IMG/VR virus record: IMGVR_UViG_3300027845_000349
Location: 23,805-87,804 of that record
Strand: one strand, 5' to 3'
Source of the DNA: a virus
Taxonomy: Duplodnaviria > Caudoviricetes
DNA length: 64,000 bases
The position numbers were made by a program, and so were the translations under genes. Each line of letters opens with the position of its first letter. Within the stretch, counting starts at the first letter, position 1. The notes under the pieces are model-generated. The model ran no database searches. It saw nothing but the letters and a program-made list of their open reading frames with translations, and was not told the origin of the DNA. Shown piece after piece: positions 20,573 through 39,940 of the stretch.

Positions 20573-20671
20573 GGGGATATGGCAGAATGGAGCCTTTCGA
20601 GGCGAATGCACAATTAGTCAATAATTGATCCATGGTGACACATGGTGGAGGAACAATACCTTCTATCTCCA
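20573..20671 (+). ncRNA. Non-canonical tRNA-like RNA with Ala-type acceptor and TCA at the anticodon position
   Basis: GGGGATA/TATCTCC-A acceptor; D-stem GCA/TGC with an inserted GCCT-TTCG-AGGC hairpin; CAATT-AGTCAAT-AATTG arm; long V-arm; T-arm GGAGG-AACAATA-CCTTC. Confidence 0.7.
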
Positions 20672-21540
20672 ATAGCCCTTGTGGGTGAATAATTTTTTTT
20701 TAGTTTTTTCATTACATCTGAATTATTTAACAGATGGGTGATAGAACTCTTATGCTTTTAGCCGGGAATAGAAGAGGCCTTTGGTTCTCGGCTTTTTTAT
20801 CGGGGGATAAATGGAATGTAGTAAATGTGAGAATATGAAAGATACCTGCTCTGTAGAGAATCTTTATGCTATAGGATATCTAAAAGCATGCCCTAATATA
20901 AAAGAGCCAGTACTGAACGAATATGGATGGCTGCTTAATCCTATGAGTGAGAAATACCAATTATCTAATGGCCATATCTTTTTAATTCCTGAAGAAATAA
21001 ACCAAAAATGGATCATGACTTGGATGATTACTAAAAACGGATCCGGAAGTTGTGGAAAAACAAAACCAGATTTATATATTTTCTCATATAAAAAAGCAAT
21101 TGAAGAAATTTTAAAGCACTACAGATTAAACGAATTAGACATAACCGAAATAAAATATATTTTTGAAAATAAGTTTGATAGTAGAAGAATTTTCATGGAA
21201 AAAGAAATAGATGAAGTTGAAGAAAAACCCGAAGAAATATATGTAAGTCCTTTTGAACATATAGAGTATGGAAATATTGGCGATCAGTTAGATTTATTCT
21301 AAATAAGTTAATAAAGTAATAAAAATAACTATTGATCAAAAGATTAAATGGCTATATTATTGATAATAACAATAATTATAGGAGAACTAAAATGTTCACA
21401 CAAGTTAAATGTACAGGAGAGGTAGAGAAGCTTCTGAAAGAGCATAAAGAAAAACACTTTTCTCATCTTAAATCATGGGCTGCGTATTTTATAGAAATGT
21501 CCAGACAAAGAGCTGAAGAAGATAATAAGGGGGGAGGTAA

Positions 21541-22666: not shown

Positions 22667-25019
22667 ATGGAAAGAATTAAAGATAGATAATTTACCACCC
22701 GATATATTAACAGGGGGCTATGAATTTATGCGTAAGTATAATCATAAAGATACATGGAGCGCATACTGGCCTTGTGATTTATCAATAATAGAAATATTTA
22801 AAATATTATATAACGAAAATTCTAACATAGGTTTTAAATACCGAAAACTAGAACCAAAAGTATCAACACATGAAGAGATAATGAAGCCAAATAGATATTG
22901 GAGAGGACTAGATGAAGAATTTCAAATGGTATGGGAGAAAGCAGATATGTATAGGGAAAATGACAATAAATACTTAATTCATGATGATTGGAGAGATAGA
23001 GCCTATTTTTCTGGTCGAAGATTCAAAGATGGTATACCACCGGAGGAAAAATGAAAGACTTAAAATATTATGAAGAAAAGAATAGAAAACTTCTCGAAGA
23101 AAATATAAAACTAGATCTTAAATTAAAACCAGTTAAAATAACAGTAGATTGTACAATATACAAAGAAGAAGATTTAGAAAAATCATTTGTTAAATATACT
23201 CTTAGAAAAACATGGAGAAGAGCTGCACGTGTAGAATTTGAGAAAGCAAAAGTTCCAACACATAGATTTTTAAAATGTTCTCCAGGTGCAAAACTTAACG
23301 GAATTAAACTCGATGATGGAATAATAATACCTATATTTGCACCTGAAGTCCTTGATGATAGTGAATTAACTTCAAATATGATGCGAGAAGGGCTCATTTT
23401 GTCATTACAGAATAAATATGACACTTATTATCATAAACTCTTATTATCGTTTGATCTTAGCGATTTACCAGAACAAATCCAGGATAAAATAAAAGAATGG
23501 GGTATTAATCATGGGCAATGAAAAAGATAAGGGCAAAGATGCTTGTCTGCATATAACGGAATTACCTGTAGGAGATCTTATTATTGTTAAAAATAATATA
23601 AATTGGAAATATTCTCCAAAAGAAGACATAACTCCATTAGAAGTTGCACTAATGTTTCCGATGTTTATGAGCTACCATACAACCGGTTATTTAACTCAGT
23701 ATGATTATTTAGGATATATCATAGAAAATAATCTAGAAAGACATTTTTGTAAGGATACAAATAATGAAAACAATATGTGATAGTTGTAAAAATAAATCAA
23801 CTTGCAACGCTGCTAAAAATATTGATCCTGGGCATGTGAGCTGTTCTGGATGGACTCCATACGAATATACAAATGCTAACGATACAGGAGCTAACAAATG
23901 ACAGATCTTGATAATTTTATAGAGATCTATAAATCTTTAGATATTGAACTAAAAGTGTTTGAGACAAATGAAGGTAAAGCATTTAAAATAGGAGAAGGAT
24001 CATATCAAGAGCAAGATATTACTATAAGTAGTAAATTTGGAGGGTATGGGGGTTTTTATTCTATCGTTAGATTCAGTAGATCAGGTGAATTTTTAGGACA
24101 AGATTTTTTTGAGTAAGGAGATTGATATGAGTGATAAGAAAAGAGAGCCTTTAAGTGGAACGTATGAAACTTCTACATTCAGAGAAATGATATTCTTTGA
24201 GTCACAAGTCAGAGAACTAGAAGCATACACAACACAACTTGAAGAAAAGCTGAAGATATATGAGAACGCATTAAAAGACATTAGAGATAATTATGATTGT
24301 GATGAGGATGCACATAAATACAATACTACATGTCGTTGCTGTTTAGCAGACGAAGCACTAAAAGAAATCAATGGTAACAGTAATGAAAAAACATAAAGAC
24401 AAGCGTAATCCTAATAAAACATCAATCAAGTTTTATACATGGCATTCAGACGGTACTAAAACATTAGTTCTTGAAATACCAAATAAAATATACCGGTCTA
24501 AATATTCAGATAGCAGAATGGAGGGTTATAGATGAAGTGTCCTAAGTGTGGAAGTACCACTATAGATTATGTTGCTTGTGGTTGTTATTGCATAATTTGT
24601 GATTACAATACAGGCAAACAGCCAGAAGAGAAAGACTGTTATACATGTATCAATTTTAATAAATGTGCTCCAGATCCAAAATTACAACTAAGAATAGAAT
24701 GTTGTGGAAATGATAGTTATTGTAACTACATAACCAAAAATGGAGAATCATGATGAAAGATAAACAATGAATGATAAGAAATGTGAAACGTGTTATTACG
24801 ATACAGATAGAATACTCTCGGATTGTTCAAACAACCCAATCGATAGACAAGAAATAGCATGTGATCAATGTGGAGATGAATTGTCTCATTACAGAGAATT
24901 AACAGGCATAGAACCACAAGAGAAGACGGGATTAGATGAACTAAGAAACTTATGTACTATTTACGATAGCATTTCAAGCACTACTATTTTGAAATTGCTA
25001 AAGGAACAGGAGTAAATGA

Positions 25020-36983: not shown

Positions 36984-37683
36984 ATGGAAGAGGATAAACT
37001 AATTTTTAATTGTCCTGAATGTGGGAAAGAATATTCTACAAGTATAGATTCAACCGGTGATATGTGGAGATGTATTTGTGGGCAAAGATTTTCATGGAGA
37101 AAATTCTCTATTCCAAAGGAATCTTATATTAGATTGACTTCTGAACAGATTGAAGAAATTCATTATAGATATCTTACTGATAAGAGTCTACAGATATTTA
37201 ATTCAAGAATTGTAATGATAATGTCAATGGCTATACCATCATATAGGAAAAATAAAACCGGTAATCTTGAAGTTATATATTCTACTGAAGATATGCGAGA
37301 AATTAAAGGAATAGAGAAATTAAGAGATGATTATATTAAAGATCATTATCCAGAATTAATATATATTGGAGAAATAGATGCCATTAACAAATGATAATTC
37401 AAGGATACATTTCTGTAGATATTGTGGGAAAACTTTAGAAACAAAAAGAGTGGTAATTGGATTCTTTACAAAGACAGTTGAAAAAGCATGCAATTGCTCT
37501 GATTTTGTATTAAATATAGAGATAACAAAGAATATAGACTCCTTGGAAAAGTCAAGACCGAAAGATAAATTTGAAATACGAGAATCTTATTCAATAGAAG
37601 AGATAAAGAATTAATTTGACATATTAAAATAAATGAGATAATCTTTATTTTTTATATTCTATTTATTATTTACAATTTTCCTA

Positions 37684-37712
37684 AAAGCCCTGGTATAAAT
37701 CAGGGCTTTTTT
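37684..37712 (+). terminator. Intrinsic terminator insulating the tRNA operon
   Basis: AAAGCCCTG-gtataaat-CAGGGCTTT followed by a T-tract. Confidence 0.85.
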
Positions 37713-37713
37713 A

Positions 37714-37742
37714 TTGACATAATTATAATATTAAAATAAGGT
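37714..37742 (+). promoter_or_regulatory. Promoter of the leader-peptide/tRNA operon
   Basis: TTGACA(37714)-17-TAAGGT would start at about 37749 (leaderless); an alternative TATAAT at 37724 would give an AAGGT SD. Confidence 0.6.
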
Positions 37743-37749
37743 AATAAAT

Positions 37750-37803
37750 ATGAACAAGAAAAATCTATACAGTTTATATCTCTCGTTGGTAATGCCTGAG
37801 TGA
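37750..37803 (+). CDS. Attenuator leader peptide MNKKNLYSLYLSLVMPE
   Basis: 17 codons; codons 6-13 are CTA TAC AGT TTA TAT CTC TCG TTG (only Leu/Tyr/Ser), matching the downstream tRNAs; TGA then TAG stops. Confidence 0.85.
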   Translation: MNKKNLYSLYLSLVMPE

Positions 37804-37854
37804 TAGAACTATTTTCTTTATTATTCAGGCCATCCATTGTGGGTGGTTTTTTTT
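37787..37854 (+). promoter_or_regulatory. Antiterminator/terminator pair (transcription attenuator)
   Basis: 37787-37807 pairs with 37817-37836; this competes with terminator GCCATCCA-ttg-TGGGTGGT (37829-37847) plus a T8 tract ending just before the first tRNA. Confidence 0.85.
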
Positions 37855-37856
37855 AT

Positions 37857-37930
37857 GCTCCGGTAGCCCAACTGGTAGAGGCATGGGACTTAAAATCCTT
37901 GTGTTGACAGTTCGACTCTGTCTCGGAGTA
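37857..37930 (+). tRNA. trnL: tRNA-Leu(TAA), short variable loop
   Basis: Cloverleaf; anticodon TAA 37891-37893; 5-nt variable loop; A73; no encoded CCA. Confidence 0.9.
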
Positions 37931-37936
37931 ATTCAA

Positions 37937-38010
37937 GCCTTGGTGGCCTAATTGGTATAGGCGCTGGTCTTAGGAACCAGACTTTGAGAGTTCGAGTCTC
38001 TCCCGAGGTA
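37937..38010 (+). tRNA. trnL: tRNA-Leu(TAG), short variable loop
   Basis: Cloverleaf; CTGGT-CTTAGGA-ACCAG; 5-nt variable loop; A73. Confidence 0.9.
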
Positions 38011-38016
38011 ATACAT

Positions 38017-38101
38017 AGAAGAGTATGTTAGCGGCTATACACGCAGTCTTGAAAACTGTTTACACTTAACGGTGTCGTGGGTTCGAGTCCCACCTCTTCT
38101 G
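38017..38101 (+). tRNA. trnS: tRNA-Ser(TGA)
   Basis: AGAAGAG/CTCTTCT acceptor, anticodon TGA 38050-38052, long V-arm, G73. Confidence 0.92.
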
Positions 38102-38105
38102 TTAT

Positions 38106-38189
38106 GGACAAATGCGATAATCGGTATTCGGCTTGATTGCTAATCAAGTGATCTGAAAGGGTTTATAGGTTCGAGTCCTATTTTGTCCG
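38106..38189 (+). tRNA. trnS: tRNA-Ser(GCT)
   Basis: GGACAAA/TTTGTCC acceptor, CTTGA-TTGCTAA-TCAAG, long V-arm, G73. Confidence 0.92.
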
Positions 38190-38193
38190 ACAT

Positions 38194-38277
38194 GGGTAGG
38201 TATGCAAACTGGTGAAGCAAACGGTCTGTAAAACCGTGACGTAAGATACATTGTGAGTTCGAATCTCACCTTACCCA
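38194..38277 (+). tRNA. trnY: tRNA-Tyr(GTA)
   Basis: GGGTAGG/CTTACCC acceptor, ACGGT-CTGTAAA-ACCGT, long V-arm, A73. Confidence 0.92.
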
Positions 38278-38338
38278 CTTCTTCAAGTTCTAAATTCTGG
38301 GGCTTTTTTTATTTGTTAAATATGTATATAATACTATC

Positions 38339-39940
38339 ATGTGGACAAATGAAGAAAAGAAAGTTATAGCTACAACTGCATTAACAAACATGAGGCCGGG
38401 AGCTCATTTAGATTTCTGGCAGGAATGGTATCTATGTCAGAATGTTCGTTTCGGTCATTTGTTGAAATCCAGAAGAATCGGATTCAGCTTTATAAACTCA
38501 ATTAAGATGGTATCGGAAGCTATTTATCCAGGAATAAATAGATACCAAAAAGTAGTACTCTCGTATTCTTTAAATGAGGCCATGGGCAAAATAAAAGACG
38601 CTAGAGAAGCACTTATGAATCTTCCAGAAGGATGGACAAAGGAATTAAAAACAGACTCAAAGACAGCTCTAGAATTTTGGGATGTTGGTAAAAAAAGCGT
38701 TTCGCAAATTATTTCGATACCTGCTAAGTCTGCAAGGGGATTTGGAACAGATAACGATTACGGAGGAGCTATTGCTGATGAAGCAGCCGAAATAAAAGAG
38801 TTTCGTCCCATATATACATCTATTCTTCCTACTCTATCACGAGGTGGTACATTCTGGATGGGTGGAACTCCTAAAGGGAAAGATGATTTATTTTATGATG
38901 TTCACGCCAATAAGGAAAAATATAAATCGTATACAAGAATAGAAATACCGTGGTGGCAAAGTTCTGCGAATTGCACTGACATAAAATCAGCTATAAGATA
39001 TGCAAAAGAAATGGCTACTCATGATAGAGTTGAAAAATATGGCAATGAGATATTACATGAAATATTCAATAATATGGGACTTAAGCAATTCCAGCAGGAG
39101 TACGAATTAACATTCCAGGATGAAAATGATTCGTTCATTACATTAGAAATGATTATGTCCTGTACCCCTCAAGAAGTAGAACAATACGAATATAAAAATA
39201 TATCAGAAATTCTAAAGGGTGTCATTATCCCTGAAATATGCACAGGATTTGATAAAGACGGTCAACCAGTATTTGAATCGGTAACAGCTCCAGCTTATGA
39301 TCCGGAAATACATGGAGCTCTTTACGCCGGTTGGGATATGGGAAGAACAAAAGATGCTTCTATATTTACACTTATCGGAGTAAAAGACGGTAAAAAACAT
39401 GTGTGGATGTCATATGAATTAAAAAACACTCCATTTGATGAACAGAAAGCATTTGCTGAACTGGCTTTATCGGTTCTACCTATCCAGCAATTTTTAATTG
39501 ATAAAAACGGATTAGGTATGGATTTTGCGGAATGGGCAGAAAAGAAATTTCCTACAGTTGCCCATGGTGTACAGTTTTCCAATGAAACTAAAGAAACTAT
39601 GGCTAATAAAGTATACTTAGGATTTGAAAGATTTGAATATGTTCTCCCTATGAATAGAAAACTTCATGCAGACATTCATTGTATAAGAAAAACATTAACA
39701 GCAATGAAGTTTAATAAATATGATGGATCCACAAAAGATTCTCATGCTGACCGGTTCTGGAGTCTTGCCCTGGCCACAATAGCTATAACTGATGGAGATG
39801 CAAATGTTTCAAGATTTTATCAAGGGTACAGAAGAAATAAGGATATTCAGATATCTTCAACTAAGAAAATTAAAAGTTCAGGAAATGCAGATTTAGACCG
39901 GATAAGAAGAATGGCTAGAAGGGGTAAAAGGCGTGGTTAA
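38339..39940 (+). CDS. terL: Terminase large subunit
   Basis: KSRRIGFS Walker A variant, ADEAA Walker B, GGTP.G, GWDMGRTKD and HADRFWSLALA nuclease motifs. Confidence 0.92.
   Translation: MWTNEEKKVIATTALTNMRPGAHLDFWQEWYLCQNVRFGHLLKSRRIGFSFINSIKMVSEAIYPGINRYQKVVLSYSLNEAMGKIKDAREALMNLPEGWTKELKTDSKTALEFWDVGKKSVSQIISIPAKSARGFGTDNDYGGAIADEAAEIKEFRPIYTSILPTLSRGGTFWMGGTPKGKDDLFYDVHANKEKYKSYTRIEIPWWQSSANCTDIKSAIRYAKEMATHDRVEKYGNEILHEIFNNMGLKQFQQEYELTFQDENDSFITLEMIMSCTPQEVEQYEYKNISEILKGVIIPEICTGFDKDGQPVFESVTAPAYDPEIHGALYAGWDMGRTKDASIFTLIGVKDGKKHVWMSYELKNTPFDEQKAFAELALSVLPIQQFLIDKNGLGMDFAEWAEKKFPTVAHGVQFSNETKETMANKVYLGFERFEYVLPMNRKLHADIHCIRKTLTAMKFNKYDGSTKDSHADRFWSLALATIAITDGDANVSRFYQGYRRNKDIQISSTKKIKSSGNADLDRIRRMARRGKRRG

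Follow-up and report, generated by a model that had tools for sequence, protein, structure and literature searches.

The five tRNA genes for leucine, serine and tyrosine on the plus strand of a 64,000-nucleotide stretch of phage DNA (Caudoviricetes; IMG/VR record IMGVR_UViG_3300027845_000349, positions 23,805 to 87,804; hereafter the window), which forms part of an 87.8-kb genome with 32% G+C, are preceded by a short leader that we hold, with moderate confidence and on sequence grounds, to be a ribosome-mediated (leader-peptide) transcription attenuator gating the tRNA operon. Attenuation is the best explanation for the combination of a promoter geometry that places an in-frame ATG at the transcript start, codon replacements that stay within the Leu/Ser/Tyr set, tRNA sets restricted to these three amino acids, two hairpins (P and the predicted terminator T) and, in one homologous leader, a clean switch in silico. 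An earlier note on this DNA, made by a model from the letters alone, had proposed a translated leader that is written in the codons of the downstream tRNAs and gates a terminator. This core was reinforced here by the finding of two homologous leaders in other contigs (L024 and L026), but the ribosome-binding site and the details of the antiterminator had to be revised. The features of the region are as follows.

37686-37713, plus strand: terminator t1, which closes an upstream short unit; the tRNA cassette starts directly past its T-run.
37714-37742, plus strand: promoter, with the -35 box TTGACA (37714-19), a 17-nt spacer and the -10-like box TAAGGT (37737-42).
37750-37806, plus strand: leader open reading frame (ORF) of 17 codons, MNKKNLYSLYLSLVMPE, with the tandem stops TGA TAG; apparently leaderless.
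37765-37788, plus strand: run of eight Leu/Ser/Tyr codons, which samples all five downstream tRNAs.
37770-37811, plus strand: hairpin P (the '1:2' helix), in which run codons 8-13 are paired with the ORF end and the stop codons.
37794-37830, plus strand: hairpin A, a 14-bp stem of -16.8 kcal/mol that serves as the '2:3' helix in the window.
37827-37854, plus strand: predicted intrinsic terminator T followed by T8; core 37830-36/37840-46, extendable from 37827.
37856-38278, plus strand: five tRNA genes, Leu-TAA, Leu-TAG, Ser-TGA, Ser-GCT and Tyr-GTA (ARAGORN, with Rfam tRNA matches).
38291-38338, plus strand: right-hand border of the cassette, at which the 3' half of t1 recurs together with its T-run, upstream of the terminase -10 box TATAAT (38327-32).

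The ORF (37750-37803, with a second in-frame stop, TAG, at 37804-37806), its eight all-different codons CTA TAC AGT TTA TAT CTC TCG TTG, the terminator-like hairpin with T8 ending 2 nt short of the first tRNA, and the five tRNAs themselves were all found where the earlier note had placed them. Together with the promoter geometry and hairpin P, these elements are read from the sequence and from comparison with the two relatives. Under the proposed mechanism, the host-type promoter would start the transcript at or beside the ATG, so that the ORF would be read as a leaderless mRNA, and codons 6-13, all of them Leu, Ser or Tyr, would together sample every tRNA encoded downstream. The run (region 1) is predicted to pair with the ORF end and the stop codons (region 2) as hairpin P. 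A ribosome stalled on the run would free region 2 to pair with region 3, weakening or blocking T, and polymerase would then enter the tRNA genes; a ribosome at the stop codons would cover region 2, allowing T to form, and transcription would end 2-5 nt before the first tRNA. Without translation, P would hold region 2 and T would form in L024 and L026, whereas the untranslated state of the window may be ambiguous, A being predicted to be more stable than P. Translation, termination at T, the response to stalling and negative feedback by the accumulating tRNAs are what we infer from this arrangement.

The codon run was first weighed against chance. The figure of about 3e-6 given in the earlier note is a per-position value; for the 142-nt leader, p is about 1e-4 to 1e-3. 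In random 142-mers of the same composition, an ATG-initiated ORF with at least eight consecutive L/S/Y codons occurred in 0.3-1.7 per 10,000 trials, a figure that rose to 1.3-5.7 per 10,000 with any start codon and to 6-15 per 10,000 with no start required. In plus-strand frames, 24% of sense codons are for L, S or Y, and the six-frame translation of the genome contains four runs of at least eight such codons in total, with that of the leader being the only plus-strand case. The coincidence is real yet not overwhelming, since the run was picked from a very large scan, and comparative data were therefore needed. Several codons of the run are rare in the phage's own genes (CTC, 4% of Leu; TCG, 2% of Ser; TTG, 9% of Leu); the leu leader is likewise built with rare codons. 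A second long L/S/Y run, SLYSLLSLYL, which is one of these four, lies on the minus strand at about 37511-37540, 200 nt upstream and antisense to the ORF at 37378-37614, and is probably a coincidence of coding-strand composition.

Such comparative data came from two contigs in which a tRNA cassette occupies this very site. In L024 (JGI, 86.5 kb), the terminase is 70% identical to that of the window, and in L026 (Logan) it is 64% identical; the terminases of the two contigs are 73% identical to each other. The L024 cassette encodes Leu-TAG, Leu-TAA, Ser-TGA, Ser-GCT and Tyr-GTA, and that of L026 encodes Leu-TAG, Leu-CAA, Leu-TAA, Tyr-GTA, Ser-TGA and Ser-GCT, so that the tRNA sets of all three phages consist of Leu, Ser and Tyr only. 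Both are preceded by homologous leader peptides, MKRTNLSSLYLSLVLPER in L024 and MKTRKSYYSLYLSLVTNKR in L026, with runs of eight (LSSLYLSL) and nine (SYYSLYLSL) codons, respectively, against eight in the window. The core SLYLSLV is invariant in the three leaders, and its distance from the ATG is 21, 21 and 24 nt (window, L024 and L026), always in frame, which means that the frame is kept over a +3 indel. The three codons before the core, which fall outside hairpin P, read NLY, NLS and SYY, with the replacements L to Y, Y to S and N to S all leading to L, S or Y. Between the window and L024, three substitutions lie inside the run and all of them stay within the set; 22 of 72 single-base neighbours do so, which gives a probability of about 0.03. 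The termini of the peptides vary (MNKKN, MKRTN and MKTRK at the N-terminus; MPE, LPER and TNKR at the C-terminus). Identity between the window and L024 is 84% in the small ORF, 64% in the linker, 74% in the terminator, 67-91% in the tRNAs and 57% in the promoter zone from TTGACA to the ATG.

Despite this divergence, the promoter geometry is maintained. TTGACA is invariant and stands directly past t1 in all three leaders, 30, 30 and 29 nt from the ATG (window, L024 and L026), with the -10-like boxes TAAGGT, TATATT and TAAGCT lying 17-18 nt past it and the ATG 6-7 nt past the box. The predicted transcript start thus falls on or beside the A of the ATG at 37750. A simple consensus promoter scan missed this promoter, its -10 box scoring 3/6. 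A TATAAT at 37724-29 was considered as the cassette promoter and dropped, as it has no counterpart in L024 and L026, which share the TTGACA geometry. The earlier note had read AAGG as the Shine-Dalgarno (SD) sequence of the leader ORF; these letters belong to the -10-like box TAAGGT and are missing in both relatives, which have no SD sequence, so that the ORF would be leaderless. Other genes of this phage carry strong SD sites, and the genome has promoters of the sigma-70 type (TTGACA/TATAAT). The terminase gene shows the same geometry as the leader, however: its ATG lies 6-8 nt past a -10-like hexamer (TATAAT, TATACT or TAATAT) and lacks an SD sequence both in the window and in all but one of the 18 relatives examined, the gene starting ATGTGGAC (window 38327-38341; these 17 relatives are among L001-L033). 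The terminase mRNA therefore looks like a conserved leaderless message, which makes leaderless translation of the leader plausible.

Hairpin P, which had escaped the earlier note, pairs 37770-37790 with 37794-37811 at -11.0 kcal/mol in the window and appears in the minimum free energy folds of L024 and L026. Across the three sequences, 90% of cells were paired, compared with about 40% in slid controls, and at 37774/37807 the pair reads U-A, C-G and U.G, one pair being changed on both sides. The terminator is similarly maintained, with the stems GCCAUCC/GGGUGGU, GCCGUCC/GGAUGGC and ACCGUCC/GGGCGGU (window, L024 and L026) followed by 7-8 U, and in every case 2-3 nt separate the end of the hairpin with its T7-8 from the first tRNA. 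Two pairs of the T stem are changed on both sides in a manual reading of each sequence's own fold; the three-way MAFFT alignment misplaces the L026 stem, and an automatic pair count therefore understates covariation. The earlier note had an antiterminator sequester the whole 5' arm of T. A strong alternative helix does exist, hairpin A (37794-37807 with 37817-37830), a rival of P for 37794-37807, but its overlap with the terminator core is limited to C37830, the closing base of T; the pairing beyond A up to 37836 amounts to a weak 3-bp extension (37787-89 with 37834-36). A reduces the T of the window from 7 bp at -8.9 kcal/mol to 6 bp at -6.0 kcal/mol through loss of the closing pair C37830-G37846. 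In L026, region 2 (GCGAUAGGAC) instead pairs with the 5' arm and loop of T in a 10-bp helix. An Rfam scan of 37300-38500 returned only tRNA models above threshold, with no leader or small-RNA family; matches to anti-hemB (E 0.085) and, in the upstream unit, to PsrR1 (E 0.023) were far below gathering scores.

The earlier note had suggested folding the leader with a ribosome-covered region masked, and this check yielded a clean switch in L026, none in L024 and a marginal one in the window. The A site was moved along the ORF codon by codon, the ribosome footprint was masked each time, the pair probability of T was computed, and the resulting switch scores were compared with those of shuffles of the stretch between the run and T. 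For L026, the probability of T was 1.0 in the free RNA, in which P and T both form, and 1.0 with the ribosome on codons 2-4, fell to 0.0-0.18 on codons 5-12 and recovered to 0.9-1.0 between codon 13 and the stop; of 150 shuffles, 1 reached its switch score of 0.75. In these computations, L026 is a textbook stall-dependent switch. For the window, A is predicted to withhold the closing pair C37830-G37846 for stalls on codons 6-11, and the switch score was 0.63 if this pair was required (matched by 3 of 200 shuffles). Because A removes only that closing pair, the modelled switch of the window is graded at best.

The five tRNAs of the cassette are the sole tRNAs found by ARAGORN in the whole 87.8-kb genome. 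Its Leu-TAA and Leu-TAG are short-armed, at 76 and 74 nt. The cassettes of the window, L024 (634-1054) and L026 (1971-2460) encode exclusively the isotypes that in bacteria have a long variable arm (class II), namely Leu, Ser and Tyr; all of their Leu tRNAs are short (74-77 nt) and lack this arm, which the Ser and Tyr tRNAs retain. Streptomyces phages likewise have short-arm tRNA-Leu genes (76 nt), as do several large tRNA arrays of uncultured phages. The regions before two tRNA-like RNAs of the window (at about 20573 and 54009) hold no leader comparable to 37714-37854. The 11-mer GTGATAGAACT of the leader (37800-37810) recurs at 20739-20749, downstream of the tRNA-like RNA at about 20573-20671 and again shortly 5' of a terminator; by our estimate, one such repeat matches the chance expectation at this genome size.

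Downstream of the cassette lie the genes for the terminase large subunit and the portal; the terminase ATG (38339) lies 6 nt past its -10 box TATAAT. By alignment, the cassette (37714 to about 38290) has a complete t1 on its left, the 3' half of which recurs on its right; the repeated element, the t1 3' half with its T-run, occupies 37696-37713 and 38291-38311. t1 also precedes the leader in L024 and L026, and it aligns to the terminator directly before the terminase promoter in relatives without tRNAs. Most of the relatives found through the terminase (57-80% identity) have no tRNAs, with t1 then followed directly by the -10 box and the terminase ATG. No tRNA cassette was found in the terminase relatives L001-L011, L022, L023, L025, L027 and L031-L033, and the whole 81-kb relative G001 gave no match. 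The nearest terminase relatives of each carrier lack the cassette, which therefore seems to have been gained or lost repeatedly, and the layout suggests that this occurred by recombination between the flanking repeats. Between the last early gene and the terminase lies a mini-unit (37616-37713) composed of TTGACA, about 70 T-rich nucleotides and t1, which is also kept in the tRNA-less relatives L002, L007, L009, L011, L022 and L027; its PsrR1 match is the weak, below-threshold one given above, and the unit could be a small RNA or a late control point like lambda PR'-tR'. One further terminase relative (L031, 60% identity), an 84-kb contig of GCA_050031985.1, has its protein labelled 'MAG: Spirochaetales bacterium', which indicates the host lineage of these phages only weakly, the binning of phage contigs being unreliable.

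Beyond the two carriers, exact-pattern scans of viral_contigs and genome_contigs with the terminator, the first tRNA and the leader core returned no relatives. Three 17-mer matches lay inside coding DNA and were dismissed as chance, pattern scans for tandem Leu and short-arm Leu tRNAs recovered unrelated large tRNA arrays only, and no homologue was found for an antisense ORF of 45 amino acids. Among sequencing runs, none of RNA was listed for this stretch, and one marine DNA run contained a small share of it. Contigs of this marine metagenome run, which are known by partial matches only and settle nothing on the leader, include a match to 37762-37882 at about 82%, a contig in which T>C at 37801 turns TGA into CGA, the form also present in L024 and L026, a variant with T>C at 37847, and one that joins 38102 to 38192, skipping tRNA-Ser-GCT.

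Several observations weigh against attenuation. The leader ORF, the translation of which is predicted, has no SD sequence in any of the three phages. The covariation of P consists of a single pair among three sequences, which is thin support, and its shuffle control was uninformative (314/500). In the window, A and T can coexist (-24.5 kcal/mol, compared with -25.1 kcal/mol for the extended A), the terminator pair probability being 0.57, and the middle of the T stem is kept for stalls on codons 8-13, that is, on six of the eight run codons, with the onset at codon 7 or 8 depending on the assumed footprint; without the closing pair, the switch score drops to 0.13 and is matched by 16 of 150 shuffles. 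A is not conserved: CAGG is changed to GAAG in L024, in which the helix has no counterpart, and the probability of T there is about 1.0 at every ribosome position, giving a switch score of 0.00. The three tRNA sets cover the same three amino acids and thus offer no contrast for co-variation between leader codons and tRNA sets. One marine metagenome contig matches 37794-38016 (about 92%) but not the sequence upstream of 37794. Moreover, five unrelated phage tRNA arrays (L013, L015, L017, L018 and L019) and that of T5 have no matched leaders, so that such a leader is not general among phage tRNA clusters.

These points have to be set against the alternatives. The leader could be a structured non-coding RNA made of a 5' tail, P, a U-rich linker and T, acting either as a stable small RNA made beside the tRNAs or as a constitutive but leaky terminator that simply keeps tRNA levels low, with the ORF and its run being a by-product of the pyrimidine-rich 5' strand of P. 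This is the main rival, which we consider unlikely although several findings favour it: P and T are the best conserved parts, L024 shows no alternative to T, and third positions are identical in 10 of 11 of codons 8-18 between the window and L024, which indicates a nucleotide-level, structural constraint that may be sufficient to preserve the core of the run. A hairpin, a U-rich linker and a terminator are also the layout of many small RNAs. Stable RNAs without an assigned function, several in number, are annotated between the tRNA genes of T5. A non-coding RNA would nevertheless leave unexplained why the ATG is fixed at the transcript start of three diverged promoters, why the frame is kept across a +3 indel, why codons outside P are replaced only by L/S/Y codons, why the run matches L/S/Y-only tRNA sets in three phages and why region 2 of L026 can form a 10-bp helix with the terminator; it also finds no Rfam family at the leader. 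A peptide of 17-19 residues that is functional in itself, with T simply as the terminator of its gene, would account for the ATG, the frame and the core SLYLSLV shared by all three leaders, but its termini are not conserved, which argues against a peptide function, its hydrophobic stretch is too short for a membrane span, and conservation extends to the nucleotide level beyond that of the peptide; we regard such a gene as very improbable.

Factor-dependent antitermination is a further alternative. P might be the site of a phage or host factor or a put-like polymerase element (compare lambda nut and HK022 put) that times the passage of T, or a polymerase modified at the upstream unit (37616-37712) might pass t1 and T into the tRNAs and the terminase. 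Its appeal lies in the promoter, short RNA and terminator kept directly 5' of the late genes in relatives, an order that resembles the lambda PR'-tR' arrangement, and in the necessity that T be read through for any tRNA synthesis, as there is no room for a promoter past it. However, no antiterminator protein was identified, three upstream proteins having given only DUF1064, P is much larger than a boxB hairpin, and the codon match and frame conservation are left unexplained, all of which makes this route quite improbable. Finally, the ORF may have arisen by chance in AT-rich DNA or by accident when the cassette was inserted. When very many windows are scanned, coincidences at p of 1e-3 to 1e-4 will occur, and the Cys-rich ORF T5.070 before tRNA-Cys shows how such matches arise; this ORF (L020, 10628-10756), just 5' of tRNA-Cys, encodes 42 residues with six cysteines in a zinc-ribbon-like pattern, so that a match between a small ORF and the amino acid of the next tRNA can have another cause. 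Against chance stands the conservation of the ORF and its run in two distant phages, and an origin of the ORF start as a duplicate of the terminase start was ruled out by the lack of similarity to the terminase N-terminus (alignment score 15, shuffle mean 16). Accident is, in our judgment, as improbable as a functional peptide.

If the attenuator reading is correct, tRNA supply in these phages would be governed by the very process that the tRNAs serve, a very short feedback loop, and would offer a testable handle on why and when phages use their own tRNAs. The three homologous leaders, one of them with a clean predicted switch, are ready experimental constructs. That three phages keep cassettes confined to the three isotypes with a long arm in bacteria speaks for a specific pressure acting on tRNAs of this class. 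A more far-reaching and doubtful proposal is that a family of leaderless attenuators lets marine phages switch on private class II tRNAs, the Leu arms of which have been stripped, only when ribosomes slow on the Leu, Ser and Tyr codons. Such a leader would sense decoding speed and respond to a mismatch in codon supply or to an attack by the host on tRNAs with a long arm, with direct negative feedback by the tRNAs. Any link of the leader to host tRNA-cleaving defences is speculation. Human SLFN11 prefers type II tRNAs, and other tRNA targets have been reported for bacterial enzymes (papers on tRNA-cleaving defences). Why phages carry tRNAs is itself under debate, with codon compensation and escape from tRNA-cleaving defences as the competing views (PMC10264068, PMC11555353).

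As the earlier note had supposed, full-text literature searches turned up no description of a leader-peptide attenuator that controls a phage tRNA array, or tRNA genes of any kind. Among known RNAs encoded near phage tRNA genes, RNAI, RNAIII, RNAIV and RNA2H of T5 are similar in being structured RNAs of about 100 nt that adjoin the tRNA genes and are co-transcribed with them; they differ in that the T5 record annotates no conserved ORF or codon match, whereas the RNA described here ends in a terminator 5' of the tRNAs. T4 likewise encodes the stable small RNAs rnaC and rnaD beside its tRNA genes, and we know of no report that these have a conserved ORF or codons matched to the adjacent tRNAs. 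T-box riboswitches share with the leader, as proposed here, a choice between terminator and antiterminator that responds to the state of a specific tRNA. However, they bind uncharged tRNA directly through a leader of about 200 nt or more that includes Stem I and has no ORF, whereas the leader here is about 105 nt long with an ORF, and no T-box match (Stem I, antiterminator bulge) was obtained in 37300-38500 at E values up to 1. A further known system is the pheST (pheM) attenuator of Escherichia coli, in which attenuation by a leader peptide controls, as is proposed for the phage, a translation component serving the sensed amino acid. There, an aminoacyl-tRNA synthetase is controlled, one amino acid is sensed and the leader has an ordinary SD start, in contrast to the tRNA genes, three amino acids and missing SD sequence of the phage leader.

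Leader-peptide attenuation is textbook knowledge for amino-acid operons, and multivalent leaders are familiar among them: thrL senses Thr and Ile, the ilvGMEDA leader senses Ile, Val and Leu, and trpL, hisL, leuL and pheL are further examples. Rfam includes leader families of this type. The phage leader resembles them in its short 5' ORF with a run of codons for several amino acids, its 1:2 hairpin containing these codons and its terminator before the regulated genes, and in L026 also in a 2:3 helix that is predicted to exclude the terminator only with a ribosome on the run. Unlike in those operons, the antiterminator varies from one homologue to the next, being marginal in the leader of the window, and no Rfam leader model matches. 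Further distinctions are that the leader is phage-borne, that its ORF is apparently leaderless and that it would control tRNA genes rather than biosynthetic enzymes, so that the sensed quantity, tRNA decoding, and the product would be the same molecule.

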